64,000 nt of DNA from Bigelowiella natans CCMP2755 (Eukaryota; Protista; Cercozoa), in contig ADNK01001243.1 in the NCBI GenBank assembly GCA_000320545.1, forward strand, positions 25,150 through 89,149, written 5' to 3'. Shown one piece after another: positions 13,903 to 54,899 of this stretch. Below the pieces are notes generated by a model, which did not search any database, was not told the origin of the DNA, and was given only the letters and a program-made list of their open reading frames with translations. The translations under genes and the position numbers were made by a program. Each line of letters begins with the position of its first letter. The first letter of the stretch is position 1.

Positions 13903-14810
13903 CAGCAGAGAATGGACCATACCCCACATTTGATTTCCCATCTGCCGTCAGTAGGGGAATGACACAAAATTTTCATTTCAAAAATTCACCTACTGACGAC
14001 CTACTGCTGAACTGAATTGCTAGAATGACATGGCAAAATTGCACGAGCATGACATGTCAAGTACTCCACAATTGATTTCCCATCAGCAATCAGTAGCAAA
14101 ATGTGCGAAAATGCGCAACATGAAAGCTTTGCCTACTGACGACCTGCTGCTGAACTGAATTGCTAGAATGACATGATGAAAATGTTCTACCCATGTGTTT
14201 TGTGAAAACAATCTTTGTTAAAAATGACATAGCAAAATCCACAGCAGAGCATCGTTAAAAACACTGTAACTTTATTATCACCTAAAACAATAAATGAGAT
14301 ATTCAAATCAAAAATGGGAAAACCATTGGACAAATGGCTGACGGAAGAACAATTTAGATCTTATTTGAAGAACAAAAGATTTTTGTATGTGATATCATCA
14401 AGCAACATGGACACATACAAAAGGAAATCTACTGAAGAACTTGTCATCAAGTTCGGCCAAGGCAAGGGAACTCAACCAGCATCAAGATTAAAAGATTACA
14501 TATCATGTCATGGGTACACTGACTCCAAAAGACCTTGGATGGGTTGCAAATTACATTACTTGCTCATCACGTACTGAAAAGAGCAAAAAAGTAGCAGCTA
14601 TAAACGTTCTATGGTTCATAAGATGAACTAAAATTAAAACAGTATGCGCTAGAAAAAACAACTTGTTAGTAGACAGAGGCGATGAAAGAATATTAATAAG
14701 GTTGAGTAAATTGATGAGCATATTAGATTATGAACAATTCAAAAAACTTACAGACATTGAGTCAAAACCTACATGCAATCTACGAAACAAAAAGCAGAAA
14801 TACATCGTTG
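13903..14810 (+). repeat. Left inverted repeat (TIR-like), homology stops abruptly at 14810
   Basis: Reverse complement of 34792-35687 with ~19 substitutions and several 1-4 bp indels (hand alignment). Confidence 0.95.
14294..14810 (+). pseudogene. Frameshifted, truncated copy of the TIR-encoded ORF 34484-35296
   Basis: Fragments MGKPLDKWLTEEQFRS... and LLVDRGDERILIRLSKLM... match the right-hand ORF but are broken by indels. Confidence 0.9.
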
Positions 14811-14825
14811 CAAGTCGATCGCAGC

Positions 14826-15260
14826 TATTCGATCTTGTTGTTATTGTTGTTGTTGTTGTTGTGTCGTTGTTGTTGTAGTTTATTATCATTGTTCATTGTT
14901 CATTGTTCATTGTTGTTGTTGGGTTCCGGTGTCGTACGTAACAATGTCTTGCAATTTGAAAAAACCAGCTAGTCAATTTACTAGTCATAGTCCTCACTAA
15001 AGCTAGTTCGAGGCACTGCGTTTCGCACACTGCAAATGTCTTGTAACATTTTGGAAATGCTAGTTTTTTGTCATTGTTCATTGTTCATTGTTCGTTCATT
15101 GTAGCTAGTTGTAGTCCTCACCACAGCTAGTTCGAGGCACTGCGTTTCGCCGTACACTGCAAATGTCTTGCAACATTTTGGAAGCGTAGTTTTTCATCAT
15201 TGCTCATTCGATTCTCGGCACTGCGTTCCGTTGCACATGATGAGCTACATTTCCAAAATG
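14826..15260. repeat. (GTT)n tract plus ~125-bp degenerate tandem units
   Basis: GCTAGTTCGAGGCACTGCGTTTCGC..ACACTGCAAATGTCTTG at ~15002 and ~15126, with looser copies on each side. Confidence 0.7.
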
Positions 15261-15649
15261 CTGCGCGTCGACATTTGCAGTGTGCGAATTGCAGGCGGAG
15301 CAGCCACACGAGGGGCAAAACTGATGCACGAACTGTTGCCAGAGTGCGCATTGATGCTCATGCTGTGTCCTAGAGACCACACAAATGTTGTCACATCTCT
15401 GGCAACACGCACACTTGCATTGTGGATCTGTAGTAGTTGTGCACACCCACAAACCTCGTCAGTGCGTTTCGCGTTGGAATGTTCAAAACGACATGTTCTG
15501 AGCTAGGTTTCGTACACATGTGATTGTAAGAACAATGCATGCGACCATGCATGATCGAGCAATAACACACATGTGTATGTCCTAATCGCAAACATGCGCC
15601 ACAGCTAGCACAGCGAACCACAACACATGACACTCCCTTCTCCAAATAG

Positions 15650-16000
15650 CTTCAAAAGTTGAAGACAAGCTGATCGAACTTCGCTTCCGTGAAGCAATCC
15701 CACCGGAAAATATCAGCAAGCATTAATATGCATTTATGAAAAATAGATGCTTGCGAAACAGCTTTAACCAAGATGGCACAGAAAATCGAAGATGGGATAT
15801 ACAATAAAAACGGCATGATACGTAAATTGCACGAGAAATATAAAATTAGGGGTTCCTTATTATTATGGATCGATGACTGGCTTAGATATCGCTCGGCCAG
15901 ATTCAAATTTGGCAACACTCTATCTGAACATATGAATTGGAGAATGGAGTCCCAGAATGCTCTTCCCTTAGCTGTTTTCTATTTATAACATACTATGATA
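15650..16000 (+). pseudogene. Non-LTR (LINE-type) reverse transcriptase fragment, frameshifted
   Basis: KLHEKYKIRGSLLLWIDDWLRYRSARFKFGNTLS is followed in another frame by ELENGVPECSSLSCFLFITY, the LINE RT stretch leading to the GVPQGSxLSPxLF motif. Confidence 0.75.
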
Positions 16001-16146
16001 TATATGAATACATAACAAATACTGATTTTCAAATAATACCCCATGAGTAAATATTGCATCTGCTTAGTTCTTCACATTAGCCACAGGAAAATATATAGCT
16101 TGGGCCGCCCACCTTGTAGATGGCGCGCATCTACTCCTGTATATAT

Positions 16147-18149
16147 CTATTTTTTCGAGCTTATGGCGACCATTTCCGCCCCCAGCCCTCGCTTCAATTC
16201 CGTGCTCAATATGTACAAATTCCTCAAGTCTCTATTGAACACCTGGACCCGTCGCTCAATGCAATCATGTTTGATGAAGGTTTTGATTTCATCATCGTTT
16301 GTCAAGCCATAGGGAGTGTCCCCATTTCTATTTTCAGCCTCAATGTTTGCTTTCATGTTGACCAGGTACTTTACGATCCTAAAATTACCGTTTGTGCAAG
16401 CCGCGATCAACGGGGTACAACCTAATGCATTGTTATGTAATCATTTCATATTAACATCTTCCACAGCTGCTGCCTAAATGCTAGCATTGGTACCCACCGT
16501 AGTTGTTTTCAGCCTCAATGTTTGCCTTCATGTCAATCAGGTACTTTACGATCTCATAACCATTTTTAGAGCAACCCCAAATCAACGGAGTATCACCTAA
16601 TGCATTGTTATGTAATCATTTCAAATTATGTAACATCTTCTAGCATTGGTACCCACCGTGCTCTTTGTTTTCCCCCTCAATGTTTGCCTTCATGTTAACC
16701 AGGGACTTAACGATCTTTAAATCACGCTTCATGCAACCCATGATCAACGGAGTATGACCTAATGCATCATTATGTAATCATTTCAAATTATGAAACATCT
16801 TCTCCAACTGCTGCCTAAGTGCTTGCATTGGTACCTACCGTATTGGCCTACCGCCTCAATGTTTGCCTTCATGTCAATAAGATACTTCACGATCCTAGAA
16901 TCAATCACTTTGATACCGTACATCAACGGAGTATCACCTAATGCATCGTTGTGTTATCATTTCATATTAACATCTTCCACAACTGGCTGCCTAAATGCTA
17001 GCACTGGTACCCACCGTAGCAGTTTTCAGCCTCAATGTTTGCCTTCATGTTAACCAGGTACTTTACGATCTCAAAATTGCCCATTTGGGTACCCACGAGC
17101 AACGGAGTATGATCTAATGCATCGTTATGTAATTAGTTGAAAGTATGTAACATCTTCTACAACTGCTGCCTAAACGCTAGCATTGGTACAAACCGTACTC
17201 GCCTTTCGCCTCAATGTTTGCCTTGATGTTAACCAGGTACTTAACGATCTCAAAATTTTCCATATGGGAACTCTCGATCAACGGAGTATCACCTAATGCA
17301 TTGTTATGTAATTAGTTGAAAGTATGTAACATCTTCTACAACTGCTGCCTAAATGCTAGCATTGGTACCCACCTTTCCTGTTTTTCGCCTCAATGTTTGC
17401 CTTCATGTTAACCAGGTACTTTACGATCTCAAAATTACCTTCACAGCAACCCGCGAGCAACGGAGTATAATCTAATGCATCGTTATGTAATCATTTCAAG
17501 TTACGTAACATCTTCTCCAACTGCTGCCTAAATGCTAGCATTGGTACCCACCGCTGTCGTCTTTCGCCTCAATGTTTGCCTTCATGTTAACCAGGTACTT
17601 TACGATCTCAAAATTGCCCATTTGGGTACCCACGAGCAACGGAGTATGATCTAATGCATCGTTATGTAATTAGTTGAAAGTATGTAACATCTCCTACAAC
17701 TGCTGCCTAAACGCTAGCATTATTACAAACCGTACTCGCCTTTCGCCTCAATGTTTGCCTTGATGTTAACCAGGTACTTTACGATCTCAAAATTACCATT
17801 TTGGGTACCCACGAGCAACGGAGTATCACCTAATGCATTGTTATGTAATTAGTTGAAAGTATGTAACATCTTCTACAACTGCTGCCTAAATGCTAGCATT
17901 GGTACCCACCTTTCTTGTTTTTCGCCTCAATGTTTGCCTTCATGGTAACCAGGGACTTCACGATCTCAAAATTACCTTCACAGCAACCCGCGAACAACGG
18001 AGTATGACCTAATGGATTGTTATGTAATCATTTCAAATAATGTAACATCTTCTCCAACTACTGCCTAAGTGCTAGCATTGGTACCCACCGCTGTCGTCTT
18101 TCGCCTCAATGTTTGCCTCCATGTCATCAAGGTACTTCACGATCGCCAT
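16147..18149 (-). CDS. Ankyrin-repeat protein, one 33-aa repeat per exon (10 full repeat exons plus a partial first exon)
   Basis: ~179-bp tandem unit = 99-nt exon (GxTPLxxxxxxGNFEIVKYLVNMKANIEAxxxx) + ~80-nt phase-1 intron GTGGGT...CATTAG (e.g. intron 18009-18088). All exons read in frame to the stop at 16147; in-frame ATG at 18149. Confidence 0.88.
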
Positions 18150-18351
18150 TTACCAAGCTTGAATTCTGGGAAGAATCATTTGGAAATGCATGGTAAATTT
18201 TCCCTTGCGTCTGTGATGAAATTATGTCGCAACCTGAAAATTAGCATTTTAAAATGTTGTTTCTAAAATCTCTTGGGACTCTCTCAAAGGTCAATACAAA
18301 ATTCACTAAAAAATCGCAAAATCGAATTTCGCATTTCTATTCTTAACTTCT

Positions 18352-21300
18352 TCAAATCCCAAGATGGACAAGGTCCTCAACACTCACCTTATCTTCAAAT
18401 TCAACATCCTGAGGGGTGTATTCACCAAATGCTGGATATGTTTGTTGGTTATTTCTACTAAGATTACACTCCACACAAGTTAATCTACAGTTGTTCCAGA
18501 GATGGGGTAGATCATTATCAATTCTATCCACAGAAACATTATCAGCAGTAAATCCACATCTACACACAGGACATTGTGGATGATTATTAACAGTTCTTTT
18601 TATCCATTCCTCATCAATATATTCTTTATCTTTCCAAGTTCTACCAGCTCTTTTGTCCTGAGATTTATATGAAGATACTTTCATTCGTAGTTTTTGAGTG
18701 ATCATACTTTCCTTTAATCTGTAGCATTCTTTATCGCTGTGCTGATATATTTGTATCTGTGAAAGGTCAGTTGAACGAGTTATAGCAGTCCAGAGCCACT
18801 TGCGATTAATTCTACAGGTGTTAGTATCGAATACGGTAATGGGGCCATCTACTGATAATCCTTGAAAACTATGACAGGTAGAGGCATATGATAATCTAAA
18901 ATGCTTACTAATTAATTCTATAGGAATTCTTATTTCTTCCATATCACATACATCCTGTATTACAAATTCTTTTTTACTTACTTTAACAACTTCATAAGCA
19001 TAGTTCACATATAGTTTTGGTTTCTTATTATATTTTTTACACACAATCTCCATACCAGCATAGTAGCAAATACCATCTACATAAACCTTTTTTCTCGGTT
19101 TCTTTTGTAGGCTATGGATATGCTTTCCTACTGAACGGGATCTAAAGTTGTAGAAGGTAATATTGTTGAGAGTTCTAACTTCACTTATACTTTTCACAAC
19201 TTTAAAATATTTTTTTAGCACATCAAATGGTTTAGTTTTTACATCAAATATTTCTTGTTTTAATTGTACAAGAGTATTTCTTTCCTCGTCTGTTTTTACT
19301 CTCTTACAGATTTTCAATGTAATTTGATTTGGAAACATGCTATTTAAAGCTTCAGTTGTTCTAACATCAAGGTCTTTGATGTTATTAAACAGATATTCGT
19401 TTTCAATGGGATCCAATTGAGCTAAATCACCAGTAGCAATAAATTTTTTATCAGTATGCTTATCCATAAATAACTTAATTTTTGATAGTTGATGTAGTGA
19501 ATACATATAAACCTCATCAAAGCACATAACATCATATGGTGAAATATCAAATTTTCTTATGTATTTACATTCGTTGTTATGAATGTTAAGGCTAAATAAT
19601 CTATGATAAGTAATAGCATCGTGTCCGCTCTCACGAATATTTTGGCATAATTTATTGAACGGTGCTACAAATAGTATTTTCTTTCCTTTGTATTTTTTAA
19701 CTGAATAACTCTTACCACTACCAGGTAATAAAGCATTCACAAGAGTTCTATCATATTTATCAAATACATTTGTGATTTCTTCTGTGTCCCATTCATTTTT
19801 TATGTCAATCTTATTAATGTTAATTAATTTAGGTTCTACCAGTTCATTTTCTTCAGGAATAAAATAATTACCGGCAACTTTAGTCCCTTTTTCTAATTTC
19901 ACACCACCAATATCTTTATTAAAATCAAAATGAGGTATAATTTTATGAACCTTATCAGATACAATAATACAATCAGTTTTAATAGCTATAGGATGTAATC
20001 CTACTGATACACATTTATCATATAAATTACACATTTTGATACTTACCATATCATATATCATATCTTTAATAGGTTTGAAGGTCTCTCTTACAAGTTTTTT
20101 AGTTGTTCTTACAAGTAAAAATAAATCATCATTCATAGGATTAATTTCACCACCATATAATTTCTTATAATGATTTGCTTCATTCAAATTTTTATAAATT
20201 TTACATACTGATTTATGATTGTATTTCTTCTCAAGCATTCCTGTAATTTTATTACATATGAATTTGTTAGCATTGATGGTTCCAAGTTCTGTTTCATACA
20301 GTTTATCAACTGCTTTACTAAATTTAACAGTAGCAATATTAGAAGGTCTAATGTAGTATAGTATATCGTAACTATTTTTATTCATTTGTTTTAATTTAAA
20401 TCCATATACTCTGTTGCATCTTTTAGGTAATAAGATATTATGAGCTTCACCTCCATCTAAACTCATCACAACATACATTGCAAGGTCTTCAATAGAATGA
20501 TCATCATATTTAACATAATTATCAAAATAATGAAAAATAGGAATTTGAGAGATTGATTTTAAAGCCCAAGTGTAACATTTATTAACATCAATACCATTTC
20601 CAATAGCATCATCACTTAGTCTTCCTACAGCAGGTCCTTTAGAATGTGCTTCATTCATTCTTAATGCTTCATCATTGAAAATGCTTATGTGTTCTTTCTT
20701 AATAATTTTTTGATAGAAGTCATCATCTGCTTTCACAAAATTTTCATAGTTATTTTCATTTACATCATAAGTAACAATGTCATTCATGTTGTTGTAATCT
20801 GGATGTGAAATAATACAGTACTTATTGCTAATTTTAAATGATAATGACAGCATTCTGTTGTGTTGAAAGAAAATTTTAGGTTCGTATTTATGAACATTGA
20901 TCATTTCAATTAACAATTCTCTCACATCCCCATGATAAAAATATTTGATATTTTCATCATTCACTGTTTTAATATGAGATACGATATCATTGAGGTTTTT
21001 AATAAATTTGAAACAATTACTTTTTTCTTCATCTATTGATCTAAATTTGTATTTGTCATAAACCTGTAATGAACATTCATTGCATTCTACCTCTTTTTTT
21101 TTCTGTTCTAGTTCTTTGATTTGGTGATTGAGCAAATAAGCATGATTATTGTGAATCATAATTCTAAAATTTCGTGGTGATGTGTGCTTGTTGTGTTCAT
21201 CAGGTGTAAATTTATCAACTAAATTATACATGTCATCGTAAACGGTTAGCCCTAATTCATATTTCTCAAAAAACTTTTTAATCTCTGCTAATTTGATAGC

Positions 21301-22173: not shown

Positions 22174-22304
22174 ATTGTTATTACAGATTAGATTTCTTTA
22201 AGTGAGAATTAAACGAATGAAAATTTAAAAAAAAACTGTAGTTTTTTTGAGAGTTTTGAAACGAACATAAAATGGTTTAAAAAGAAAAAATCCATAGCAT
22301 TACA

Positions 22305-22622
22305 ATGAGCGAAAATAATAAAATATTTAAATCCAAAACTTCAGAATATGTGAAAGAATACTACAAAAAGAACTCTCAAAAATGGCTACGAAAGGTAGAA
22401 TGTGAAGCCTGTAATTGCATGATTGGATTAGCATCACTATCTCGACACAAAAGAACTAAAAAACACATGCTTAATAGCAATCCTAATCCATCCGAAGAGC
22501 AGAAAAAATTTGTAGATGACAATGAATGTGTCAAGTTCAGAAAATGCAAATTAGTCAAATTAGAAGAAAAACTAGATTTTGTCATGAAGAAATTAGAAGA
22601 GTTAGGAAACAAAACACAATGA
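22305..22622 (+). CDS. Viral zinc-finger protein
   Basis: KEYYKKN...VECEACNCMIGLASLSRHKRTKKH motif, typical of giant-virus/PLV small Zn-finger proteins. Confidence 0.7.
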   Translation: MSENNKIFKSKTSEYVKEYYKKNSQKWLRKVECEACNCMIGLASLSRHKRTKKHMLNSNPNPSEEQKKFVDDNECVKFRKCKLVKLEEKLDFVMKKLEELGNKTQ

Positions 22623-22681
22623 ATGTGTTTTCATGATCATCACAATTACTGTTGTGATTATGAGATGATATTATGAACAAG

Positions 22682-22936
22682 TTAAATGTTGATAGTTTTT
22701 GTTTCATGACCATTGTCATGGTTGTTGTGACTGTCAACATCCTTAAATCCATCACACCAAGATGGTTTGTCATGTTGTTCTTTTTCTTCAACATCTGGTT
22801 TGGCAAGACCAAGTTTAATCAACATGTCTCTATTTTGTCCCTTACAATTATCAATGTTCTTCACAAATGCTTCTACAGATTTGTCACTAACTTTAGGTTT
22901 TGTTGGAACTTTTTCATCCTCATCAGTGTTACTCAT
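22682..22936 (-). CDS. Viral hypothetical protein (84 aa)
   Basis: ATG-start ORF tiling the gene-dense viral region. Confidence 0.45.
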   Translation of the reverse strand: MSNTDEDEKVPTKPKVSDKSVEAFVKNIDNCKGQNRDMLIKLGLAKPDVEEKEQHDKPSWCDGFKDVDSHNNHDNGHETKTINI

Positions 22937-23202: not shown

Positions 23203-23261
23203 TTGTTGAAATAGTTTAGATTTTTACATCTAAAAAAAAATGATCTCAACTCAATTGATGC

Positions 23262-24494
23262 ATGAGTAAGTTAAGAGAAACAGAAAAAAGGTTCACACGA
23301 CAGTGGAACAATTATTTTCCATTGATAGAAGAAAATAAAAATGGAGACAAAGTTCCAAGTAAAGTCAATGTTAATCATCTTCTTTGGATGATTTACAACA
23401 AAGACTCCATTGGAGGTGATAGAAAACTTGTGGTGAGAAAACTCAATACTGAGGTAATTAATCCAATTACAGGAACAAGATTGCATTTGTCGAACATGGA
23501 AAAGTCTTTAATCACACATGCTAATGACAACGGATTTAACATTAGTAATCCAACAGAAGATTTAAGAACACCACCAAGAGCACAAACACCGCCAAAAATG
23601 ATGAGAACACCAGCACCACCATCATCTAGAACACCATTGCCAAGAGGACCACCACCGCCACCACCAAGAAGACCACTACCAAGAAGACCACTACCAGGAG
23701 GACCACCAGTAGGACCAGTATTTGGAGGACCAGCACCAGCACCAGGAAATGGACAACAACAGATAGCACAAGAAGCAAAACTACCAGCATTAGCAAGATC
23801 ATCTGGTCGCAATGTTCCAACACAAGCAACACCATCACAAAGATTTAATCAACAACCAGGATTTAGTTTGACACCAGTAGTTCCTACAACAGCACCTGCT
23901 GGATTTAAATCAACACCAGACGACATGGGTAAGAAAAAATTAACAGATTTATCTTTGAAAGAAATAAAAGAATACAATGATTTTCAGAGACCGCTACCTG
24001 AAATTTTAGAAAGACAAAATACAATTTGTCAGACCAAGACAAGGCAAGGGTCAATTCAAGAAGCAAGTCATCCATTTGGAGGTAAATGTGATGTAACTAA
24101 TGAATCACAAATTAATTGTAACACTAATTCTAAAAACCCATTCATCAAATCTCAAGCACGATTAAAGGTGAAAGAAATAGATGACACAAGTAAAATTTAC
24201 AGACCTCAATTACAAGAAGCAATCGATGATGCTAAACCATCTGCTAAATTAATAGCAAAGATGGCTAACATGGAAGCACTCAAAGTTGAAGTTCCAGTTG
24301 AACCACCATTCAAAGCAAGAGGTTTTGATCCAAAAGAATTACGACCGGTATTTAAAATTAATTACACTCACGGTGTCGTGCCTCAATTTGTGAGTGAGAG
24401 ATGCAAGAAGAAAAAGGCAGAAGTAGCTGATGTTCACACTACTTACATCAAATCAAAACAAATGAAAGATGCAAGTGATCTGTTTTTTCAATGA
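23262..24494 (+). CDS. Viral proline-rich hypothetical protein (410 aa)
   Basis: Long intronless ORF with a central Pro/Arg-rich tract. Confidence 0.75.
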   Translation: MSKLRETEKRFTRQWNNYFPLIEENKNGDKVPSKVNVNHLLWMIYNKDSIGGDRKLVVRKLNTEVINPITGTRLHLSNMEKSLITHANDNGFNISNPTEDLRTPPRAQTPPKMMRTPAPPSSRTPLPRGPPPPPPRRPLPRRPLPGGPPVGPVFGGPAPAPGNGQQQIAQEAKLPALARSSGRNVPTQATPSQRFNQQPGFSLTPVVPTTAPAGFKSTPDDMGKKKLTDLSLKEIKEYNDFQRPLPEILERQNTICQTKTRQGSIQEASHPFGGKCDVTNESQINCNTNSKNPFIKSQARLKVKEIDDTSKIYRPQLQEAIDDAKPSAKLIAKMANMEALKVEVPVEPPFKARGFDPKELRPVFKINYTHGVVPQFVSERCKKKKAEVADVHTTYIKSKQMKDASDLFFQ

Positions 24495-24537
24495 TCATCG
24501 TTTTGTTGTAATTATTATTTCTATTACAATTGTGATA

Positions 24538-25278
24538 ATGACTAAAAAAGCATGTAAAAAATTAGATGTAAAACCCATATTAAAAAATAAATCTAAACAG
24601 ATGCACAATGATTACGGCTTGATTCCATCTTTTCCTAACAGATGCTTGTTCATAGCTCCTACTGGATCAGGTAAAAGTGTTGTGATAGTAAATTTATTAA
24701 CTCGTAAAAGATGTTTAAGAAACTTTTTTGATGTTGTTTCATTTTACTCTCCTAATGTGAATTACGAAGAAGAACACATAGAAACAAAAATAAAAAATGA
24801 AAAAGCAGAAATGAAGTTTGAAGAAAAGTTCAAAGAGAAAGAGTTTGGTGCTATGGTTCACAAATTAATGAAAGAGCAAAAAGAACTAAAAGACAAAAAG
24901 AAACCTATGAAAAAAACATTAATAACAATTGATGATTTCGCATCTGATGAAAAAGTGATGAAGAGCAAAACATTAAAAGATTTGTTCTTTGCTGGTAGAA
25001 AATGTGGTACATGTGTTTGGATTACCAGTCAGCATTACAAAATAGTTCAACCAGATGTTAGAACTAATGCGGAGCATCTCATCATGTTCAGTAGGCAACC
25101 CTCGAGTGAATTGAAAAAGATAGCTGAAGAAATGTCAATAGGTAAATACACCAAGAAAAAAATTATAGAAATGTTTGATGAAATGTCTACTACAGATTAT
25201 TCATTTTTACATTATGATCGTAAGCAACCAATGAATGAAAGATACATGATGAACTTTGAAAGTTTTATGAACATCTAA
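24538..25278 (+). CDS. A32-like (FtsK/HerA) genome-packaging ATPase
   Basis: Walker A FIAPTGSGKS, Walker B ITIDDF, GRKCG..VWITSQHYK and PDVRTNAEHLIMF; likely start ATG 24538 after a TCTA motif. Confidence 0.93.
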   Translation: MTKKACKKLDVKPILKNKSKQMHNDYGLIPSFPNRCLFIAPTGSGKSVVIVNLLTRKRCLRNFFDVVSFYSPNVNYEEEHIETKIKNEKAEMKFEEKFKEKEFGAMVHKLMKEQKELKDKKKPMKKTLITIDDFASDEKVMKSKTLKDLFFAGRKCGTCVWITSQHYKIVQPDVRTNAEHLIMFSRQPSSELKKIAEEMSIGKYTKKKIIEMFDEMSTTDYSFLHYDRKQPMNERYMMNFESFMNI

Positions 25279-25289
25279 ACATGGTCAAC

Positions 25290-26080: not shown

Positions 26081-26084
26081 ATCA

Positions 26085-26447: not shown

Positions 26448-26500
26448 AAATAGTCATGAATGAAATGCCATAATAATTTTTTTCTGTTCTTGTGATGACA

Positions 26501-27394: not shown

Positions 27395-27461
27395 AAAAAA
27401 AATGTTATGAAAAAATTATATTCGTTTTGATATGATTTTTTTTCATCTACACATTGTTAAC

Positions 27462-29129
27462 ATGGATGCAATTAGTAAAACTACCGATGTTAGTAGATTT
27501 CCAGAAATGGACTACAGTTTACCCCCTATGGATAAAATTTTTATTGATTCAGTCTCTCATTTTAGAGAAGAGATGAAAAATAGTAACAATGCTGAAAAAG
27601 CGAACACCAAAATGCGTTTTTTCATTCCAGCTCAACAAAGAGCAGTAGACCCATCTGAATTATATTTTCAATTAAATGTTGCTGCCAGAACAGCTGGAGA
27701 TGCTGATTTACCAGCGGTTGACCAATTAAGATTAAGACTTGCTGAAGGTGGAGTTCATTCTCTCTTTAGAGAGATGATTGTTAGAGATGGTAGAGGTAAT
27801 GTCATTGAAAAAATTAATAACTACAACCTTGTTACTAAAATTTTACAAGATGCTTTGTTAACTAAAGAAGTTAAAAATAATTCATTAAATGTGGAAGGTG
27901 TTTGCAATGACCAAGGATTGTTTAACACAGTTCATAGCAAATTTGATGTTACTGGCAACACCTTAGAATTAAAAGCACCTGTGGCTCAGGTCGTAGCTAA
28001 TACTCTTCCAGCAGGTGCGCTTAATTTTGGTGCTGCCAATGCTGCTCCTGTTGCTGCTGTGATCACTCCCGCTTCACCATCAAGAGTACTTGGTGTAGGA
28101 ACTCAATTCTTAACTCAACTAAGACCAGGTTCTGTTGTTAAATTTGATGGAAATAGTCACACAGTTGCTCATGTTGCATCTGATGCAGAATTTGTATCTG
28201 CTACTAACATTGCTGCTGATGCTGCTGCTGCTAACATTGTTGCTGGTAGAGATTTTGTTGAAGGATTACTTGAAACAGAAAGTCGTTACAAAAAATTCCA
28301 TCACGATAGACTTTTTACACCAGATGGAGCTGTTCATTGCTTCCAACCATGCTGCTCCGGATTTTTATCTCAAAACAAATACCTTCATCTTGATCATTGT
28401 GGTGGGTTAGAATTTGAATTTACTTTAGATAGCAATGCCATGATTTTCGATGACACTAACACAGCAGGTAATGCTAATATTTTCATTAAACAAGGCTATG
28501 TTCATTGCACTGCTCTTGAATTTTCACCAGTTGTTGAAGCTGCTCTTGCTAAAGCACATGTGAGAGGATCATCTATGAGTTTCCCTGTGTACCATGTAGT
28601 TAGTAGAACACAAAATGCTTCTACCTCTGTTTCTCAGGAATATCAAGAAAGTTTAGCAATTCTCAAAATGGTCAAAATTGTTAGTGGACCAACTGGGTTT
28701 GATGCAAATACTGGAGCATCATTTTTCTTTGAAGATCTAACCAGTGCTGAAAGAATTTGCTGGGAGATCAACAAACAAAGATTTACTGAGTGTGGCAATG
28801 ATGACATTTTACCTCAAGTTGTTTTTGTGAATGACAGAATTGGCAAAAATCTGTTAGGAGATTACAAACATGCTACAATTTCTTGTGGAGAATTCAAAGA
28901 AGCAGGTAAATCTGCTTTAATTTTCAACACCCAAAACCATGAAGAAGGTAATTACACAGGAGTTAACACCAACCGAGCAACTATGAGACTTAAAATTGAA
29001 GGAGGAGATGGTGCTGCTGGTGCTTTACAACCTGGAATTGCTAATGTAGGTAGACAAATCGATGTGTTAATGATGCACGAGCAATACATCATGTTAAAAG
29101 ATGGAGAAAGTATGACCGTGCGATCTTAG
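27462..29129 (+). CDS. Major capsid protein (double jelly-roll, PLV type)
   Basis: RFFIP...VDPSELYFQLNV, GGVHSLFREMIVRDGRGNVIEKINNYNLVTKIL and SGFLSQNKYLHL...GLEFEFTL follow the PLV MCP pattern; size and position next to mCP and ATPase fit. Confidence 0.85.
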   Translation: MDAISKTTDVSRFPEMDYSLPPMDKIFIDSVSHFREEMKNSNNAEKANTKMRFFIPAQQRAVDPSELYFQLNVAARTAGDADLPAVDQLRLRLAEGGVHSLFREMIVRDGRGNVIEKINNYNLVTKILQDALLTKEVKNNSLNVEGVCNDQGLFNTVHSKFDVTGNTLELKAPVAQVVANTLPAGALNFGAANAAPVAAVITPASPSRVLGVGTQFLTQLRPGSVVKFDGNSHTVAHVASDAEFVSATNIAADAAAANIVAGRDFVEGLLETESRYKKFHHDRLFTPDGAVHCFQPCCSGFLSQNKYLHLDHCGGLEFEFTLDSNAMIFDDTNTAGNANIFIKQGYVHCTALEFSPVVEAALAKAHVRGSSMSFPVYHVVSRTQNASTSVSQEYQESLAILKMVKIVSGPTGFDANTGASFFFEDLTSAERICWEINKQRFTECGNDDILPQVVFVNDRIGKNLLGDYKHATISCGEFKEAGKSALIFNTQNHEEGNYTGVNTNRATMRLKIEGGDGAAGALQPGIANVGRQIDVLMMHEQYIMLKDGESMTVRS

Positions 29130-29197
29130 ATTGTTTCATTGTTCTTAAATTCCACCAAAATTTATGTCATAAAAATTCATTTCTAACATGAATTAAT

Positions 29198-29914
29198 ATG
29201 AAACAACACAAAATTTATTTTAATAGCAAAGATGGAATTACTGGAACAACCAATGATTTAAATTATCAATTAAATAGTGCAATTGACAATGCATCTTCTA
29301 TTTCTATTACAAGAGTAAGATTTCCAATTACTTGTTACAATGTGTCAGCTAAAAATAACATTTTAGAAATTGAGAATAGTTCTGGAAACAAAACAAGTAT
29401 GGAATTAACAAAACAAAATTACAGTGCTACTGAATTAGTAACAGAATTACAAACTAAACTTTCAACTAATGCCTCATCAGTAGGAACTTTTACTCCTGTG
29501 CACAATGCTAAAACAGGAAAATTTAGTACAGGTTGTAGTGATAGTTTCAAAATAATTAAAAACGAATGCTCTAAATTTTTAGGTTACAATGACACTACAT
29601 CTCTCTCTGCATTACATGTAGCAGATAACATGAGTAATCTTTCGCCAAAACCTGTTTACATCCAAACTGATTTACAACTGGATGCAGAATTAGCAGGTCA
29701 ATTATCAAACATAGTTTATGAAGTTAGTGGCGATGTTTCTTTTGGAAGTATTTTGCATGATGATGAAAAACCAAGTGAAAGAGTAGAACTAATGAAAAAA
29801 AAGAATGTAAGCAACTTAAAATTTGCATTAGTAGATGGAGATGGAGATGAAATTGAAAATAATGGCATAGATTATTCTATGACAGTATCTTTGTTTTATC
29901 AGACTAAGGAATAA
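29198..29914 (+). CDS. Minor capsid (penton) protein
   Basis: IYFNSKDG..GT...ISITRVRFPITCYNVSAKNN and C-terminal FALVDGDGDEIENNGIDYSMTV follow the PLV/Polinton mCP pattern. Confidence 0.8.
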   Translation: MKQHKIYFNSKDGITGTTNDLNYQLNSAIDNASSISITRVRFPITCYNVSAKNNILEIENSSGNKTSMELTKQNYSATELVTELQTKLSTNASSVGTFTPVHNAKTGKFSTGCSDSFKIIKNECSKFLGYNDTTSLSALHVADNMSNLSPKPVYIQTDLQLDAELAGQLSNIVYEVSGDVSFGSILHDDEKPSERVELMKKKNVSNLKFALVDGDGDEIENNGIDYSMTVSLFYQTKE

Positions 29915-29945
29915 GAAAAAAAATATCTAATCATCATTAATAAAA

Positions 29946-31490
29946 ATGAGTGTTAGCATTACAGGTAAACTTGTTCCTAACCCTAATGTGTCTGGTGGAA
30001 CAAACAATGACAACAATTCTTCAGCAGGAGGTGTAGTTGGGATCACGAGCAATTCGAATGACATTAATTTTGATAAAGGAGTTTCTGTGAATGGTATAAA
30101 ATTTCAAAACACAGGAAACCAAAACGGACTTTTTATGGGTGTTGATTTGTCTGGTAATTCGTCTATGGAAATGGTCTCTCCAACAACCTACATTGATTTT
30201 GTACATCAATTAGGTTCTGATTATGCGAATCGCATTCTGTCAAAAAATGACGGTATTCACTTCACAGGGGATTTGCATGTGGGTATCATTAGACCTAATT
30301 GTACATCTTCAAGTACAATGACATCTACGAATGGAACTTTTAATGCTATTAATTTAGACGGTGTCCCTTTGAATCCAAGAAATTGTTTAGTTCACGGGAT
30401 TACATCTGACATTGTAAGTGGAAACATAAATTTTACTATAAATTCTAATTTTCAAGAAAAATTAACAACATTAGGTGATCATAATCTTTCAAATAAAATG
30501 ACAAACGATGCTACAAATGGTTTGATTATTAATGCTAATGATGTTAACAATGCAAGTGTTTCATTAACTAAAGTATCAAAGTTTTCTTCATCTGCATTAG
30601 GAAAAGAACCAAAAATAATTAACATTGATAATGATTTGCAATTGTCTAATCATTCAGGTGTGCCTTCAATGAGGTTCAAAGATGACACTGGTAATGTTCA
30701 AATTTTATGTAATGAATTAGAGGTAATAGATAACATGGGGCAGGTAAAATTAAAGATGTTAGAAAAAATGAATAACACAGAAAACAAACTTAATCCAATC
30801 ACTTTGTCATCTAATAACGAACATCAATTTTCAAGTTCCATTTTTGTAAATGGTTTGAGAAGCACAACACAACCTCATATCGATGGTATTTGTTTAGGAA
30901 AAGACATTCATAACAGTAGTAGTATTGACTTCGTTAGTCCAACATGCTACATTGATTTCGTTCATAACAATTTGGGAACAGATTATGCAAATCGGATTTT
31001 ATCAAACAATGATGGCATTCACATTGCAGGTGACATGCATGTGAATGATGCTAAAATTGCTGGAGATGTTACATTTCAAGGTTCATTGTTATCTAACACA
31101 ATAACAGATTTAACAAATAGATTAAATGCAATTGAAGCATTAGCTACAAGCAATAGCAACAACATTCAAAATGGATTTAGTAATGTGAATGTCCCCATCA
31201 TGAGAGTCATTAATAATTCATCTACTGTTGTTTTCTTTGAAAGTGGCAATCAGCCACCTTTTTATAATCCTCGTGTAGAAAGTGGTAAATCTACAGTTTT
31301 AGAATATGCTTCAAATGTTGTGTCATTAAATGTTCGTTCAAGTTCTCCATCACATAATGCTTTCAATCTTACAGCAGACAAAGCAGTTAGTATAAATTCT
31401 GGTTCTGATCCTAACATGCCAACTGGAGCTCAATATAGAGTCGAATTAAATGGTCAGAATTTTGTAACTTTTACTATTTCTAATCCATAA
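29946..31490 (+). CDS. Putative fibre/spike protein with an internal duplicated module
   Basis: Asn/Ser-rich beta protein with two copies of VSPTxYIDFVH..LGxDYANRILSxNDGIHxxGDxHV; follows the penton gene. Confidence 0.6.
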   Translation: MSVSITGKLVPNPNVSGGTNNDNNSSAGGVVGITSNSNDINFDKGVSVNGIKFQNTGNQNGLFMGVDLSGNSSMEMVSPTTYIDFVHQLGSDYANRILSKNDGIHFTGDLHVGIIRPNCTSSSTMTSTNGTFNAINLDGVPLNPRNCLVHGITSDIVSGNINFTINSNFQEKLTTLGDHNLSNKMTNDATNGLIINANDVNNASVSLTKVSKFSSSALGKEPKIINIDNDLQLSNHSGVPSMRFKDDTGNVQILCNELEVIDNMGQVKLKMLEKMNNTENKLNPITLSSNNEHQFSSSIFVNGLRSTTQPHIDGICLGKDIHNSSSIDFVSPTCYIDFVHNNLGTDYANRILSNNDGIHIAGDMHVNDAKIAGDVTFQGSLLSNTITDLTNRLNAIEALATSNSNNIQNGFSNVNVPIMRVINNSSTVVFFESGNQPPFYNPRVESGKSTVLEYASNVVSLNVRSSSPSHNAFNLTADKAVSINSGSDPNMPTGAQYRVELNGQNFVTFTISNP

Positions 31491-31540
31491 TAGTCTTTCG
31501 TTTAAAATTGAAAAAAAATATATAGTTATATCATAATCAT

Positions 31541-31990
31541 GTGGATAATGTTAGTAATGTTCGAGAAACTTTGAAAGGTTACAGAGTAACACAATTAAAA
31601 GAATTATGTCGTGAAGTAGGAATATCTCAATGTGCGAGAAACAAAAAAACTTTAATAGACAGATTGACACCCATGGTTCTAAAAAGTGCTGGGTGTGAAG
31701 TCGTTTCTATTGAAAAAGAAGAGGAGGTAAAAAAAGAAGCTAAAACAATCAAAAGAGTTCCAGTTAAAAATAGTGTCAAAAAGAAAGAAGAAAAAATTAG
31801 TCTTGAATCAAAAGAAGATAGCAATGATGAAAAAGTAAGTGTAGAAATAGAAGAAGATAGTAATGATGAAAGTTCAATAACTGAATCACCACAGGAAGAT
31901 CAAATTAATGTCAATCTTTCTAATGGAAGGAACAATAATTGTTTTATTAACTTTAGGTATATGTGTGATGATTGGATACATATTTGGTAG
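31541..31990 (+). CDS. Protein with Rho-N/SAP-like helix-extension-helix and acidic tail
   Basis: LKGYRVTQLKELCREVGISQCARNKKTLIDRL; GTG start; original stop possibly at 31901 (CAA). Confidence 0.6.
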   Translation: MDNVSNVRETLKGYRVTQLKELCREVGISQCARNKKTLIDRLTPMVLKSAGCEVVSIEKEEEVKKEAKTIKRVPVKNSVKKKEEKISLESKEDSNDEKVSVEIEEDSNDESSITESPQEDQINVNLSNGRNNNCFINFRYMCDDWIHIW

Positions 31991-32048
31991 AGTGTCGGCC
32001 TCAATTACTGATTTAGACCCCACTAACGATCACTTGATTACACATTAA
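31908..32048 (+). CDS. Small single-TM protein (not in ORF track)
   Basis: MSIFLMEGTIIVLLTLGICVMIGYIFGRVSASITDLDPTNDHLITH*, read by hand. Confidence 0.45.
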   Translation: MSIFLMEGTIIVLLTLGICVMIGYIFGRVSASITDLDPTNDHLITH

Positions 32049-32103
32049 AAAATTATTTTTTTTTGAAATTTTGTTTGTAAAAATTATCTAAATCTTTATA
32101 AAT

Positions 32104-32712
32104 GTGAGTTCTTCAACCGCAACTTTTAGAAATAATGTCCTCGTGGAAGGAACATTGAGTGGATTAACAATTACAAGAATCGACCAAGAGAAAACCCAAG
32201 TACTTAATAGTCTCAATCAACACATTACCGATTTCCAAGCAGAACAGACTGCTACTCAAACTGAAAGAGATGCTCTTTCAGCAGCATTAACTCAGGCTCA
32301 AACAGACACTACTAATGCAATTGCAGGAGTTCAGTTACAAATTGATGATAACAAGACAGACATAGAAGGAAAACTAGCAAATGAAGTCAATGCGAGACTT
32401 TCTCTCGCTTCAGAAGTGAGCACAAGAAATGCATTTGTGGATTCTGAAATTGTAAGGCTAGACCAACAACATGCTGACGATGATGCTAGATCAACAAATG
32501 CAGAAACTCGTTTGGACAACATTGATGTAGATTTACAAAATCAAATTGATAGTGCTGTAAATCAACTTAATATTAATCATCAAAATGTTGAACCAAGAAC
32601 AGCAAAGCTCGAGGAACATTTAGTGATCGATGAGTCTGACCCAGCAAACCCAGTCGTAAGCATTAAAGCAGGAGTGAAATTCGTTGTCACTGGTGATTTC
32701 GAACATGCTTAG
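32104..32712 (+). CDS. Coiled-coil viral protein (fibre/stalk-like)
   Basis: Heptad-rich 202-aa ORF; GTG start 13 nt after TCTA. Confidence 0.7.
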   Translation: MSSSTATFRNNVLVEGTLSGLTITRIDQEKTQVLNSLNQHITDFQAEQTATQTERDALSAALTQAQTDTTNAIAGVQLQIDDNKTDIEGKLANEVNARLSLASEVSTRNAFVDSEIVRLDQQHADDDARSTNAETRLDNIDVDLQNQIDSAVNQLNINHQNVEPRTAKLEEHLVIDESDPANPVVSIKAGVKFVVTGDFEHA

Positions 32713-32761
32713 ATTGCAAATGTGATTTAAATAACATGTAAAAATCTAACAATTAATGATA

Positions 32762-33004
32762 ATGTCTAATATTAAGGGTGGTGGTGCTATTTTCAAAGAA
32801 AGACCCACAATGTCAAATGATGTTGTAGGTCAAACAATGGATACTATTAATCAACAATTAAATGATAACAAGACCCAAAACACAGAAAATAAATTACAAC
32901 TTGATTTTTTAAAAGAAGTTTTTACAATAGACAAAGAAAACAAAACTGTTACGATGAATCCTGAATACAAACTCATCATTCCTAATGATTTAATTCAAGG
33001 ATAG
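32762..33004 (+). CDS. Small viral protein, C-terminus similar to the preceding ORF
   Basis: LKEVFTIDKENKTVTMNPEYKLIIPNDL vs LEEHLVIDESDPANPVVSIKAGVKFVVTGDF; TCTA upstream. Confidence 0.6.
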   Translation: MSNIKGGGAIFKERPTMSNDVVGQTMDTINQQLNDNKTQNTENKLQLDFLKEVFTIDKENKTVTMNPEYKLIIPNDLIQG

Positions 33005-33042
33005 TTCGTTTAAAATAGTATAGTTTTTTATAGTCATAAGTA

Positions 33043-33660
33043 ATGACTACAAAAAATGTTACGTTTTACAGAATTACATGTTTAACCACAAGAGAAACAT
33101 GTGTAGGTTCTACTACTATGGATCCAAAAGTGAGATTACAAATGCATGTTGCTAATTTTAGAGCATACAAGAAAGGTTTTGGTAATTGTTGTTCTTCCTT
33201 TCAAATCATAGAAAGAGATAATTACATGTTTCAAATAATTTCGGTAGTAGATGCTAAAAAAATATCGGTTCATCAGAAACGAAAGAAAGAAGCTGAACTG
33301 ATAGCAGAAGAGAAGACAAAAAGAAATTGTGTCAACAAAAATGTCCCAGGTAGAGATGTAAAACAATACAGAATAGATAATGGAGATTACATCAATGCCT
33401 ATGCGAGAGATTATTATCATGATGAAACGAAACACGACAAAATATATTGTTGCTTTTGTGACAGATTTGTGATCAAAAAACATTATGACAAACATATTCA
33501 TTGTAAAAAGCATATAAAAAATCTTCTCAAATTAAATAATGAAAATAAAAATACCAGCGAAAGTAAGCAAGAAAGCAAGATTAGCATTGAAATTGAAAAA
33601 ATTAGGTTGGAAAGGAATGACAGAGACAGGAATAAACAGAGCAAAGCAATTAGCACATGA
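33043..33660 (+). CDS. GIY-YIG endonuclease with C-terminal Zn finger (second motif Tyr changed to Cys)
   Basis: TFYRITC...ETCVGST...RLQMH...KEAELI...CVNKNVPGR, then CCFCDRFV..HYDKHIHCKKH. Confidence 0.8.
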   Translation: MTTKNVTFYRITCLTTRETCVGSTTMDPKVRLQMHVANFRAYKKGFGNCCSSFQIIERDNYMFQIISVVDAKKISVHQKRKKEAELIAEEKTKRNCVNKNVPGRDVKQYRIDNGDYINAYARDYYHDETKHDKIYCCFCDRFVIKKHYDKHIHCKKHIKNLLKLNNENKNTSESKQESKISIEIEKIRLERNDRDRNKQSKAIST

Positions 33661-34270
33661 CGATGCTATAGACATTGAAGATATTGTGGTGATGAATGCT
33701 TGGTTTAGTAGACATCAATACGTATCAAAAATAGGTTATGATAAATGGAAAGCACAAGGGAAACCAATGGATCAAGGACAAAGAAACAGGAGAAGAGGTG
33801 CCGTAAGTTGGGCCGGATGGGGGGGAGATGCTGGTTTTGATTGGATTAATAGCAAAAAGGTTCAAGATAAAATTAAAAAATATAAGATAAGCATCAATGA
33901 GAAGTATGTTCCAAAATCTCTTAGTAAAGAAGATAGGAAAAAACAAATAGAGAGCATTTTTTATGGTAGAGCACGGCCTAAATTAAGAAGTTTCAAAAGC
34001 AAGAAATCTAAATGGACTGTTAAAGCTGACAAGTATTTCAAAGGTGATACATCCTCATCTAATGTGACTAAAGTTTTAGATGTTCCTTTAAAAGCATTAA
34101 AAAAAATTATGAAAAAAGGTGAAGGAGCTTACTACTCTGGGGGATCAAGACCGAATCAAAGTGCTGAGTCGTGGTCAAGAGCCCGTCTGTATTCTGTTCT
34201 GTTTGGTGGACCATCTCGTGATGTTGATAAAAAGATTGTAAGCAAATATGATATTCCTTTATTGAAATAA
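33539..34270 (+). CDS. Two-domain basic protein of large-DNA-virus type (C-terminal DUF5824-like)
   Basis: N-domain GINRAKQLA...MNAWFSRH...VSWAGWGGDAG; C-domain KYVPKSLS...KGEGAYYSGGSRPNQSAESWSRARL. Family assignment is from memory. Confidence 0.6.
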   Translation: MKIKIPAKVSKKARLALKLKKLGWKGMTETGINRAKQLAHDDAIDIEDIVVMNAWFSRHQYVSKIGYDKWKAQGKPMDQGQRNRRRGAVSWAGWGGDAGFDWINSKKVQDKIKKYKISINEKYVPKSLSKEDRKKQIESIFYGRARPKLRSFKSKKSKWTVKADKYFKGDTSSSNVTKVLDVPLKALKKIMKKGEGAYYSGGSRPNQSAESWSRARLYSVLFGGPSRDVDKKIVSKYDIPLLK

Positions 34271-34289
34271 AAAAATCTATAGTATTATA

Positions 34290-34448
34290 ATGGTATTGAA
34301 AAAATTAACCAAAAGACAGAAAGATTTGTTGACCGCTCACAGTAAGCATCATAGTAAAAAACATATGGCTTCTATGAGAATGAACCTAATGTTAGGTAAA
34401 ACTTTCAAAGAAGCCCACGAGATAGCAACTAAAAAGTATGGTAAGTAA
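34290..34448 (+). CDS. Small basic His-rich viral protein (52 aa, not in ORF track)
   Basis: MVLKKLTKRQKDLLTAHSKHHSKKHMASMRMNLMLGKTFKEAHEIATKKYGK*; TCTA 10 nt upstream. Confidence 0.7.
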   Translation: MVLKKLTKRQKDLLTAHSKHHSKKHMASMRMNLMLGKTFKEAHEIATKKYGK

Positions 34449-34483
34449 ATAATTTTTATTATTATTATCAATGACAATAAATC

Positions 34484-35296
34484 TTATTTATCTTCAAGTT
34501 TGATGTTTTTTTTGTCTTTTGAAATCTTGTAATATTTGCGGAACAATTTATCAAAATCATCTGATTTGAGACCAAGATATTTTATGTATTCATCTTGTAA
34601 TTTAATATTCTCTTTGTCATTTGAGTTTTTATAATATTTAAGAAACAATCTATCAAAATTCTTTGATTTAACATCATTAGGCAACACACATCTAATGGTG
34701 CCTTCAAGACTTCCATCACTATATTTCACTTTGAAGGTAGTAGGTTCTTGATGGTTATTTTTCTTTGCTTTGTTTGCATGGTCTAATATTTCAACGATGT
34801 ATTTCTGCTTTTTGTTTCGTAGATTGTATGTAGGTTTTGACTCAATGTCTGTAAGTTTTTTAAATTGTTTACAATTTAATATTCTCATCAATTTACTCAA
34901 CCTTATTAATATTCTTTCATCGCCTCTGTCTACTAACAAGTTGTTTTTTCTAGCATACTGTTTTAATTTTAGTTCATATTTATGAACCATAGAGTTTATA
35001 GCTGCTACTTTTTTGCTCTTTTCAGTGATGAATAAGTAATGTAATTTGCAACCCATCCAAGGTCTTTTGGAGTCAGTGTACCCATAATATGATATGTAAT
35101 CTTTTAATCTTGATGCTGGTTGAGTTCCCTTGCCTTGACCGAACTTGATGACAAGTTCTTCAGTGAATTTCCTTTTGTATGTGTCCATGTTTGATGATAT
35201 CACATACAAAAATCTTTTGTTCTTCAAAGATCTAAATTGTTCTTCCGTCAGCCATTTGTCCAATGGTTTTCCCATTTTTGATTTGAATATTCTCAT
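34484..35296 (-). CDS. TIR-associated protein: T5orf172/GIY-YIG-like N-terminus, possible chromo-like segment
   Basis: FLYVI...VIKFG.....SRLKDY...E.KLK pattern, then KYIVEILDH...FKVKYSDG. Confidence 0.55.
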   Translation of the reverse strand: MRIFKSKMGKPLDKWLTEEQFRSLKNKRFLYVISSNMDTYKRKFTEELVIKFGQGKGTQPASRLKDYISYYGYTDSKRPWMGCKLHYLFITEKSKKVAAINSMVHKYELKLKQYARKNNLLVDRGDERILIRLSKLMRILNCKQFKKLTDIESKPTYNLRNKKQKYIVEILDHANKAKKNNHQEPTTFKVKYSDGSLEGTIRCVLPNDVKSKNFDRLFLKYYKNSNDKENIKLQDEYIKYLGLKSDDFDKLFRKYYKISKDKKNIKLEDK

Positions 35297-35687
35297 TTAT
35301 TATTTTAGGTGAGAATAAATTTACAGTGTTTTTAACGATGCTCTGCTGTGGATTTTGCCATGTCATTTTTAACAAAGATTGTTTTCACAAAACACATGGG
35401 TGGAACATTTTCATCATGTCATTCTAGCAATTCAGTTCAGCAGCAGGTCGTCAGTAGGCAAAGCTTTCATGTTGCGCATTTTCGCACATTTTGCTACTGA
35501 TTGCTGATGGGAAATCAATTGTGGAGTACTTGACATGTCATGCTCGTGCAATTTTGCCATGTCATTCTAGCAATTCAGTTCAGCAGTAGGTCGTCAGTAG
35601 GTGAATTTTTGAAATGAAAATTTTGTGTCATTCCCCTACTGACGGCAGATGGGAAATCAAATGTGGGGTGTGGTCCATTCTCTGCTG
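34792..35687 (-). repeat. Right inverted repeat (TIR-like)
   Basis: Reverse complement of 13903-14810; contains two ~143-bp sub-repeats and the 5' part of ORF 34484-35296. Confidence 0.95.
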
Positions 35688-36750
35688 CATCAAGAGTCAA
35701 GAGGCAAAACTAGAAACGGAACGGGAAGACGGTTCAAACGTTCACCAACTAGCAAACCACGTGAGAAGCTGAAGGTGCAAATGTGTTCATGAAAACAGGC
35801 AACTTCATTGCCGATTGATTTCAAACATGCAAAGAAACAGAACCGTTGACAAAAAATCCATGGCGGGTGGTAGTTCTGGGCCATGAGTTCGACACATGCA
35901 ACACGCGGCATGTGACACAAGAAACAAACAAATGCAACCTGAGCGCTGCAGCCGCTGCTCTGCACAGCCACATTGGGATGACCATTCCAGCATTCTGTGG
36001 CATTGAGAAAATTCAAACATTTCATTGCATCCGTCTCATGATGACGCCAGCAGCACTGTCGCACGGCACACTGCTTAGCATTTGTCCAGCTTCGCGAAAA
36101 AATGCAATCGCTACTCACCTTGTGCTCAATGAGGGAATGAGGGCACATGCACGCCATGAATCTCACTCATGCAATCTAGCAATGCCACAGCATCTCGTCG
36201 CGCCTTTTTTGTTTCGGCGCCAACCATGTGCATGCATGAATTAGATCTAGAGATGAACGATGCATGCGCTCATTGCGGCGGTCGCCAGTGTCGTCGATCT
36301 GCATGCACAAACAGCATGCATGCGCGCGCATGGCAGGTGTCTAGCTGTCACACAGTGCACTGCGGAGACCTTGATGATCGAAGCAGTTAAAATTTGGCCA
36401 ATGATGGAATTTCCACTGCATCTCGATCTGCTGGCGATCGATCACCGCGCATGCGCATGGCCACCATTATTCTTCTAGTGTTCCATGGTTGCAAGTTTGG
36501 CCACTACTCGTTCGCTCACTCGATGGCCACGGCACGCGTGACACCACTTGCATCATTAATGGCAAGACCATCCTATCAATCCAATCCGTTTCCACGCCGC
36601 AGTGCGAGAGATTTTTCTCTGCAAAACTACATCTTGCATTCTTAACTGCATGTGCAGTAAACGCACTATTGCTCATAGCTAATGGCATAGTGCATAGTAG
36701 TGCAATCATGATAGCTATAATCAATCGTAAAACCTGCCAAATGCGTGGCT
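35688..36750. repeat. TpA-depleted repeat block containing a reverse copy of the GAGACGGATG end family
   Basis: 35940-36040 is the reverse complement of 1938-2020 with TA->CA/TG changes. Confidence 0.75.
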
Positions 36751-46688: not shown

Positions 46689-46727
<39 letters not shown>

Positions 46728-54860: not shown

Positions 54861-54899
54861 ATCAAAACCACTGCACATGCTTGGTGGTAGGATTCAGGG

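Follow-up and report, generated by a model that had tools for sequence, protein, structure and literature searches.

Does the DNA of a polinton-like virus in Bigelowiella natans, together with the repeats around it, carry the marks of a mutator that converts TpA to TpG or CpA? The question is raised by a stretch of 64,000 nucleotides from strain CCMP2755 (contig ADNK01001243.1, positions 25,150 to 89,149 of the forward strand; hereafter the window), for which an earlier note, made from its letters, had proposed such a directional change. On the evidence of polarised proteins, independent contigs and a published mutation-accumulation experiment, we are close to certain that, as a process, B. 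natans has a directional mutator that turns A:T into G:C pairs at TpA only, and only in DNA of viral or repeat origin. The virus body (18300-34780) is AT-rich (GC 0.32); besides an open reading frame (ORF) with a superfamily 1 helicase, it holds genes for an A32 ATPase and, probably, a capsid protein. It lies between the two copies of a 913-bp inverted repeat that are 96% identical and differ by 21 substitutions, namely 12 of TA versus TG or CA, four other transitions and five transversions; the note had counted 11 or 12 of about 19. The TA was retained by the left copy at five of these sites and by the right copy at seven, and the changes include ISYYG to ISCHG (14507 and 14509) and PTY to PTC (14775). 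Compared with a generous expectation of 29%, the share of TA-type changes among transitions (12 of 16) is significantly high (p=1.8e-4). In a shorter repeat of about 80 bp, the copy at 35920-36040 has six TA-type changes among its 17 differences from the copy at 1937-2031, and nine among 20 when compared with the copy at 51870. In each case it is the other copy that has the TA, and not one TA is left in common, so the direction proposed for this repeat stands while the claim that its copies differ mainly by such changes does not.

Polarity was determined from proteins only, because DNA-level scans for outside relatives confirmed no locus. We aligned the capsid proteins of four B. natans copies (that of the window and three others) with four outside homologues that are 62-65% identical, and for the helicase we used two close outgroups from seven outside matches. 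The capsid and helicase paralogues are Bigna1 gene models. At capsid tyrosines invariant in the four outgroups, 39 of 58 residues were changed in the B. natans copies, 22 to Cys (TA>TG) and 17 to His (TA>CA), with no other replacement. Outgroup-conserved tyrosines of the helicase (n=159) were replaced by Cys in 38 cases, by His in 33 and by other residues in 16. The reverse change, from Cys or His in the outgroups to Tyr, was found at none of 36 capsid and none of 72 helicase sites. As such, TA is the ancestral state and TG or CA the derived one, which is the reverse of fungal repeat-induced point mutation (RIP), where C>T transitions create TpA, as had been suspected. Replacement of Tyr by Arg, which would need a double hit, did not occur, as expected if a TA site is no longer a target after one hit. 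The window copy is partly hit, with Cys or His at seven of 15 outgroup-invariant capsid tyrosines and at 10 of 62 conserved helicase tyrosines. The strings CVGS (33100) and KACC/KRCQ (about 23130-23180, minus strand), pointed out earlier as lost tyrosines, are present; in the capsid string HCFQPCC, the His and the second Cys do replace aromatic or Tyr residues, while the first Cys is invariant in the outgroups and the third is variable, so that these two are no evidence.

The paralogues P0008, P0009 and P0016, which are annotated as B. natans viral proteins, contain 0-0.1% Tyr compared with 4.5-7.1% in the outgroups, and are fully saturated relics with open frames, their stops being read through. 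Since a change of TA to TG or CA cannot make a stop from a sense codon under the genetic code, frames remain open while the proteins decay through missense mutations and the loss of stops; the TAG stop of the window's capsid gene is a Gln codon in two paralogues. Among 35 remote capsid-like homologues, hand-picked among the 150 matches listed, Tyr is retained at 2.4-6.3%, and none of the 35 was a tyrosine-poor protein that would point to another host.

To describe the context, we counted residues with a codon-initial A that were replaced by a residue with G in the three saturated copies. After T, 104 of 249 such residues were changed, compared with two of 214 after A and one of 72 after G. After C the count was 24 of 158, as expected where the window's own C derived from T. 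Cys and His products were about equally frequent (60 and 50, p=0.39), so both strands are used about equally, a balance unlike that of transcript editing. ADAR-type RNA editing fixed by reverse transcription was considered and rejected, since the strand excess is at most about 1.3-fold and the one-strand A>G bias is not seen. A likelihood model with 694 site-by-copy observations, which are not fully independent and take window codons as a proxy for ancestral codons, gave relative rates of 1, 0.51, 0.67 and 0.70 for A, C, G and T before TA (p=0.008), and no TAY preference (relative rate 0.87, p=0.29).

The loss of TpA is also seen in base composition. The observed/expected ratio of TpA was 0.76-0.83 in five host stretches. 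It fell to 0.66 in the virus body and to 0.57-0.58 in the inverted repeats, and four non-coding relics had 0.59, 0.46, 0.44 and 0.13, with CpA and TpG together rising to 1.4-1.7. The virus body is thus eroded only in part, and the strongest depletion (52000-54880) lies beyond the region 13903-36750 to which the note had referred. CpG, described there as abundant, has a ratio of 0.38 in the virus body compared with 0.8-0.9 in host DNA. None of the 95 visible CpG sites was changed to TpG or CpA residues in the paralogues; therefore, viral CpG is low but not decaying, and the decay of 5-methylcytosine is not the cause, as the note had held.

When surviving TA sites were sorted by their flanks, CTAG was spared. 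A sliding rule picked out six TpA-poor tracts. Three of them (4400 bp), none overlapping the virus body or the inverted repeats, were tallied, and three (13601-14200, 22601-23500 and 35101-36600) were excluded. CTAG made up 28 of 65 surviving TA sites in the tallied tracts, whereas only 78 of the 2383 TA sites of host DNA were CTAG (p=9e-23). The survival of TA relative to host DNA was 1.4 for CTAG, 0.30 for CTAC, 0.17 for GTAC, 0.16 for CTAA, 0.14 for TTAA, 0.11 for GTAA and 0-0.06 for ATAN, so CTAA and TTAA were not spared. The rates derived from proteins, with one fitted scale, predicted seven of nine contexts within about 1.5-fold; poorer fits were ATAG (0.09 predicted, 0.05 observed) and CTAC (0.16 predicted, 0.30 observed). 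The density of CTAG in the eroded tracts is 2.8 times that of host DNA, and a CTAG-rich ancestor or regeneration of CTAG, for example from CCAG or CTGG by methylcytosine deamination, may contribute to the excess. In the virus body, six CTAG sites (49 expected) are too few for a direct test of sparing. This body is also poor in other palindromic tetramers (GTAC 10, ACGT 3 and TCGA 18 of 49 expected each, GCGC 1 of 11), which suggests an ancestral avoidance of restriction sites. Taken all together, the fingerprint of the mutator is a strict need for a 5' T, one hit per TA, a weak preference at the base before TA (A > T, G > C) and the sparing of CTAG. Each copy has been hit independently, up to the full loss of tyrosine codons, within sharp local limits.

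Independent DNA contigs agree with the window, which confirms its sequence beyond the assembly, albeit from contigs and not from raw reads. The segment 51941-53724 is a single contig at single-copy depth without a difference over 1784 bp in three DNA runs, and the sequence is genuine and not an assembly artefact. When other virus copies in run X1 were compared with the window, we found 1794 places of A>G or T>C, 634 of G>A or C>T and 629 transversions, with similar figures in runs X2 and X4; such an excess is expected if several copies have each taken A>G hits of their own. Among 40 of about 3200 contig differences, 33 were transitions, 23 of which were of the TA type by hand count, or 25 with two CA/TG swaps included. 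These runs are contigs from which rare variants were dropped and possibly come from the same strain as the assembly, so they confirm sequence and give no rate.

The process is already known in B. natans, contrary to the earlier statement that no characterised pathway does this. In 15 mutation-accumulation lines of this species, Mettrop et al. (bioRxiv 10.64898/2026.01.13.699255) described TpA-to-TpG/CpA hypermutation of integrated viruses, without a proven enzyme; two integrated viral regions, mutating at about 6e-7 per site per generation, accounted for 231 of the 302 de novo substitutions. According to the main text of this preprint, changes in the viral regions were nearly all A>G or T>C, the transitions there were all on TpA and they arose in a subset of lines; the main hypermutable region is single-copy and spans 186 kb. 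It also lists 124 clusters of TpA-poor, CpA- and TpG-rich windows enriched in transposon domains, compares the process with RIP and proposes the ADAT2-like Bn78255 as the deaminase. Our literature search found no other description of the process. The main text makes no mention of CTAG, trinucleotide, Polinton, hydroxymethyluracil, 6mA or inverted repeat, though the supplements may hold flanking contexts. What we add to the main text is the sparing of CTAG, the effect of the base before TA, the use of both strands once per site and an untouched tandem ankyrin-repeat gene.

As for the mechanism, a host process converts TpA to TpG or CpA in integrated viral and repeat-derived DNA. On balance we lean towards a TadA/ADAT-type enzyme that would deaminate the adenine of TpA to hypoxanthine in silenced foreign DNA, with replication fixing G, and the enzyme would probably be steered to silenced foreign chromatin; the enzyme, its chemistry, its targeting signal and a defensive role are all inferred. 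An evolved TadA favours TA dinucleotides on RNA (PMC12265680). Sequence by itself cannot separate a lesion of A from a lesion of T, and the same spectrum would arise from a thymine lesion on double-stranded DNA: a TET/JBP-type dioxygenase could place 5-hydroxymethyluracil (5hmU) at TpA in silenced DNA, where over-oxidised T would pair with G and give T>C. Mispairing of 5-formyluracil with G is held to occur, although a look-up (PMC3978516) gave no confirmation. A mark coupled to chromatin would account for the sharp domains, and in a dinoflagellate, 5hmU made on repeats by TET/JBP silences transposons (10.1101/2023.11.30.569493); in the available part of that work, the 5hmU motif is TG-rich rather than TA and no hypermutation is reported, and we consider a thymine lesion unlikely.

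An error-prone Y-family polymerase (eta- or iota-like), which would insert G opposite T at gaps in silenced DNA, needs no exotic enzyme and is less likely still. In antibody hypermutation, WA motifs are the sites where Pol eta mutates A:T pairs, and Pol iota prefers G opposite T, but the contrast between contexts after A and after T is too strict for such an enzyme, as is the preprint's finding that transitions fall on TpA with almost no other change. We give slightly less credit again, and little in all, to a true RIP-like process in which homology pairing between repeats triggers mutation. The virus is multicopy and each eroded tract touches a high-copy repeat, from which mutation could leak into the flanks. 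An array of ten 179-bp units, although it adjoins eroded DNA, has a TpA ratio of 0.90, and T precedes nine of its 29 A>G deviations (28% expected, p=0.68); this control is a single array, in which selection for the function of a host gene could mask hits. Furthermore, the copies of the 80-bp repeat at 1936 and 51873 are intact and retain their TAs despite the high copy number. Because the ten-unit array is unhit, 1.8 kb of the near-saturated tract is eroded at single-copy depth (flanked by very high-copy short repeats) and the preprint's main region is single-copy, the idea of a repeat-induced process in the sense of RIP is unsupported, while targeting of viral or repeat DNA as such holds. It seems that repetition by itself does not set the process off; silencing of foreign DNA that spreads from repeats fits better. 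Finally, we dismiss ordinary RIP or 5-methylcytosine decay seen in reverse, a codon bias of the virus and an artefact of assembly, despite the mild TpA depletion of host DNA and the CpG-poor virus, given the outgroup polarity without reverse changes, the unchanged CpG sites, the identity of the contigs and the tyrosines of the 35 remote homologues.

Several points weigh against deamination of adenine as a targeted defence. Since ADAT2 acts on tRNA universally, finding it in this species is no pointer to its being the mutator. The TA-favouring TadA is an engineered enzyme and acts on RNA (PMC12265680). The likelihood fit also gave a 1.32-fold excess on the coding strand (p=0.01), which may reflect unequal visibility of codon classes, and the preference for the preceding base derived from proteins predicts a survival of 0.20 for CTAG, compared with the 1.4 observed, so that a simple enzyme context does not account for CTAG. 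The host control is small: in the SWI3-like exon (42162-42749), which is 99% identical to a Bigna1 protein, four of six orthologue-conserved tyrosines were retained and the others were one Phe and one His, and we regard the control as weak but consistent with restriction to foreign DNA. Although an antiviral DNA-editing defence is likely, this role is inferred and the ORFs of the window's virus copy remain open. A possible but doubtful extension is a DNA-editing immunity resembling restriction-modification, in which a base mark on CTAG or a reader of the palindrome would block a TpA editor otherwise loosed on silenced foreign DNA. A survey of N6-methyladenine (Nature Genetics, PMC12695648) makes no mention of natans or Rhizaria in its available part.

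The features of the locus are collected in the table below.

Table. Features of the viral locus and of the eroded tracts (positions in the window)
Feature	Position	Strand	Remarks
Left inverted repeat	13903..14813	+	Includes part of the 34484-35296 ORF as a frameshifted copy
Right inverted repeat	34789..35687	-	Outer ~620 bp far higher-copy in the genome than the virus body
Replication ORF with superfamily 1 helicase, 1281 aa	18352..22197	-	Pfam domains; paralogue and outgroup alignment
A32-like packaging ATPase	24466..25278	+	Pfam Pox_A32, E 6e-11
Probable major capsid protein	27462..29129	+	Features of homologue P0011 match Capsid_NCLDV clusters at 0.96
Possible minor capsid protein	29192..29914	+	Suggested by position; weak DUF5901 match under the cut-off
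Presumed GIY-YIG-like ORF	33040..33660	+	CVGS at 33100; no Pfam match
270-aa ORF overlapping the right inverted repeat	34484..35296	-	
TpA-poor repeat relic beside the left inverted repeat	15001..15700		TpA observed/expected 0.46; 7 of 21 TA are CTAG in 15000-15650
TpA-poor relic beside the right inverted repeat	35688..36600		Contains the TA-stripped ~80-bp repeat copy (35920-36040, minus strand)
TpA-poor relic 3' of the ~80-bp repeat at 1936	2050..3200		15 of 42 TA are CTAG
Near-saturated relic	52000..54880		TpA observed/expected 0.13; CTAG is 15 of 22 surviving TA
Presumed ankyrin-like tandem array with introns, 179-bp units (negative control)	16300..18200	-	Not TpA-depleted

A Pfam scan of 15 ORFs of the element found the helicase domains and no match to a polymerase or integrase. 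The major capsid candidate, which in a polinton-like virus would be a double jelly-roll protein, had no Pfam or PDB sequence match; atlas features matched viral and Capsid_NCLDV clusters at 0.96-0.97, and its predicted fold was unusable (predicted local distance difference test only 38.7). The GIY-YIG label is our assumption from the motif, Pfam giving no such call, and we likewise take the tandem array to be ankyrin-like from its translated motif; each of its 179-bp units holds one exon and one intron. Pfam was uninformative for 16 ORFs of the eroded tracts and edges, and an Rfam scan of 51700-55000 gave a single sub-threshold match.

The left inverted-repeat copy stands 3.5 kb from the virus body, and the repeat is high-copy in the genome. 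Since a repeat relic and the host-type, intron-containing array lie between them, the element may end elsewhere than at the left repeat. In run X1, the outer part of the right repeat (35067-35687) had a summed contig depth of 12625 compared with about 300-1900 in the virus body; it is about 10-20 times as repeated as the body, which suggests that it belongs to a non-autonomous element family. Near 35392, RNA reads terminate in poly(A); these come from one raw RNA run with thin coverage, from which we drew no evidence of expression. Joined contigs that skip 13 kb (21740 to 34782, the capsid module) or 772 bp (30280 to 31053) were present in all three DNA runs and are deleted virus derivatives elsewhere in the genome. 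The 80-bp repeat, with copies at 1936-2020, 46630-46950, 51873-51954 and, on the minus strand, 35920-36040, borders or sits inside most TpA-poor tracts; edge copies retain TAs, whereas the 35920 copy is stripped of them. Its summed contig depth exceeds 300 times single copy in its bin, reads of the thin RNA run match it in both orientations, it has no Rfam match and its folding is no better than that of shuffles (z -0.21). A second high-copy repeat, inverted between 14981-15209 and 53640-53735, joins two eroded tracts. No contig or read from four runs matched 55069-55300, perhaps owing to filtering or to the edge position.

A mutator that occurs naturally and is targeted to turn A:T into G:C in chromosomes would represent a novel form of genome defence and might yield base editors. 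If true, an editor gated by CTAG would be without natural precedent as an A-to-G (or T-to-C) editor of chromosomal DNA in eukaryotes. The context (5' T, A > T, G > C before TA, CTAG spared, both strands, no TAY rule) is a signature that a candidate enzyme would have to show, and it is this fingerprint, above all the sparing of CTAG, together with a further locus, that adds to the preprint. Database entries for viral proteins of B. natans can be relics that lack tyrosine and retain open frames, and phylogenies and folds are distorted as a result.

Among known systems, fungal RIP likewise degrades mobile DNA by sharply bounded, dinucleotide-specific transitions on both strands. RIP makes TpA from CpA, whereas the B. 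natans process runs in the opposite direction, raises GC and makes no stops from sense codons; it shows no sign of a need for duplication and, according to the preprint, is active in vegetative lines. Editors of the ADAR/APOBEC and TadA/ADAT types share context-specific transitions on foreign sequence, and a preference for 5' T or U is known from A>G editors. Here the target is integrated DNA, both strands are hit about equally and copies gather changes after insertion; to our knowledge, no natural DNA adenine editor has been proven. The element itself resembles polinton-like viruses and endogenous virophage-like elements in its AT-rich sequence of about 17-22 kb, A32 ATPase, capsid-like protein, superfamily 1 helicase, inverted repeats and several copies, and differs in a capsid unmatched by sequence in Pfam or PDB, in the integrase that was not found and in the host-type gene and relic between the left repeat and the virus body. 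The closest likeness is to the process of Mettrop et al., whose active regions lie on scaffolds 10 and 146, whereas the window is apparently on scaffold 26, judging by the model name aug1.26, since the preprint's model aug1.10 is found on scaffold 10. As far as their main text goes, the species, the TpA>TpG/CpA spectrum and the class of target are the same, the changes are A>G or T>C from an ancestral TA and restricted to TpA, and in both cases they are confined to foreign or mobile DNA, here with a small host protein control, and accompanied by TpA-poor, CpA- and TpG-rich tracts.

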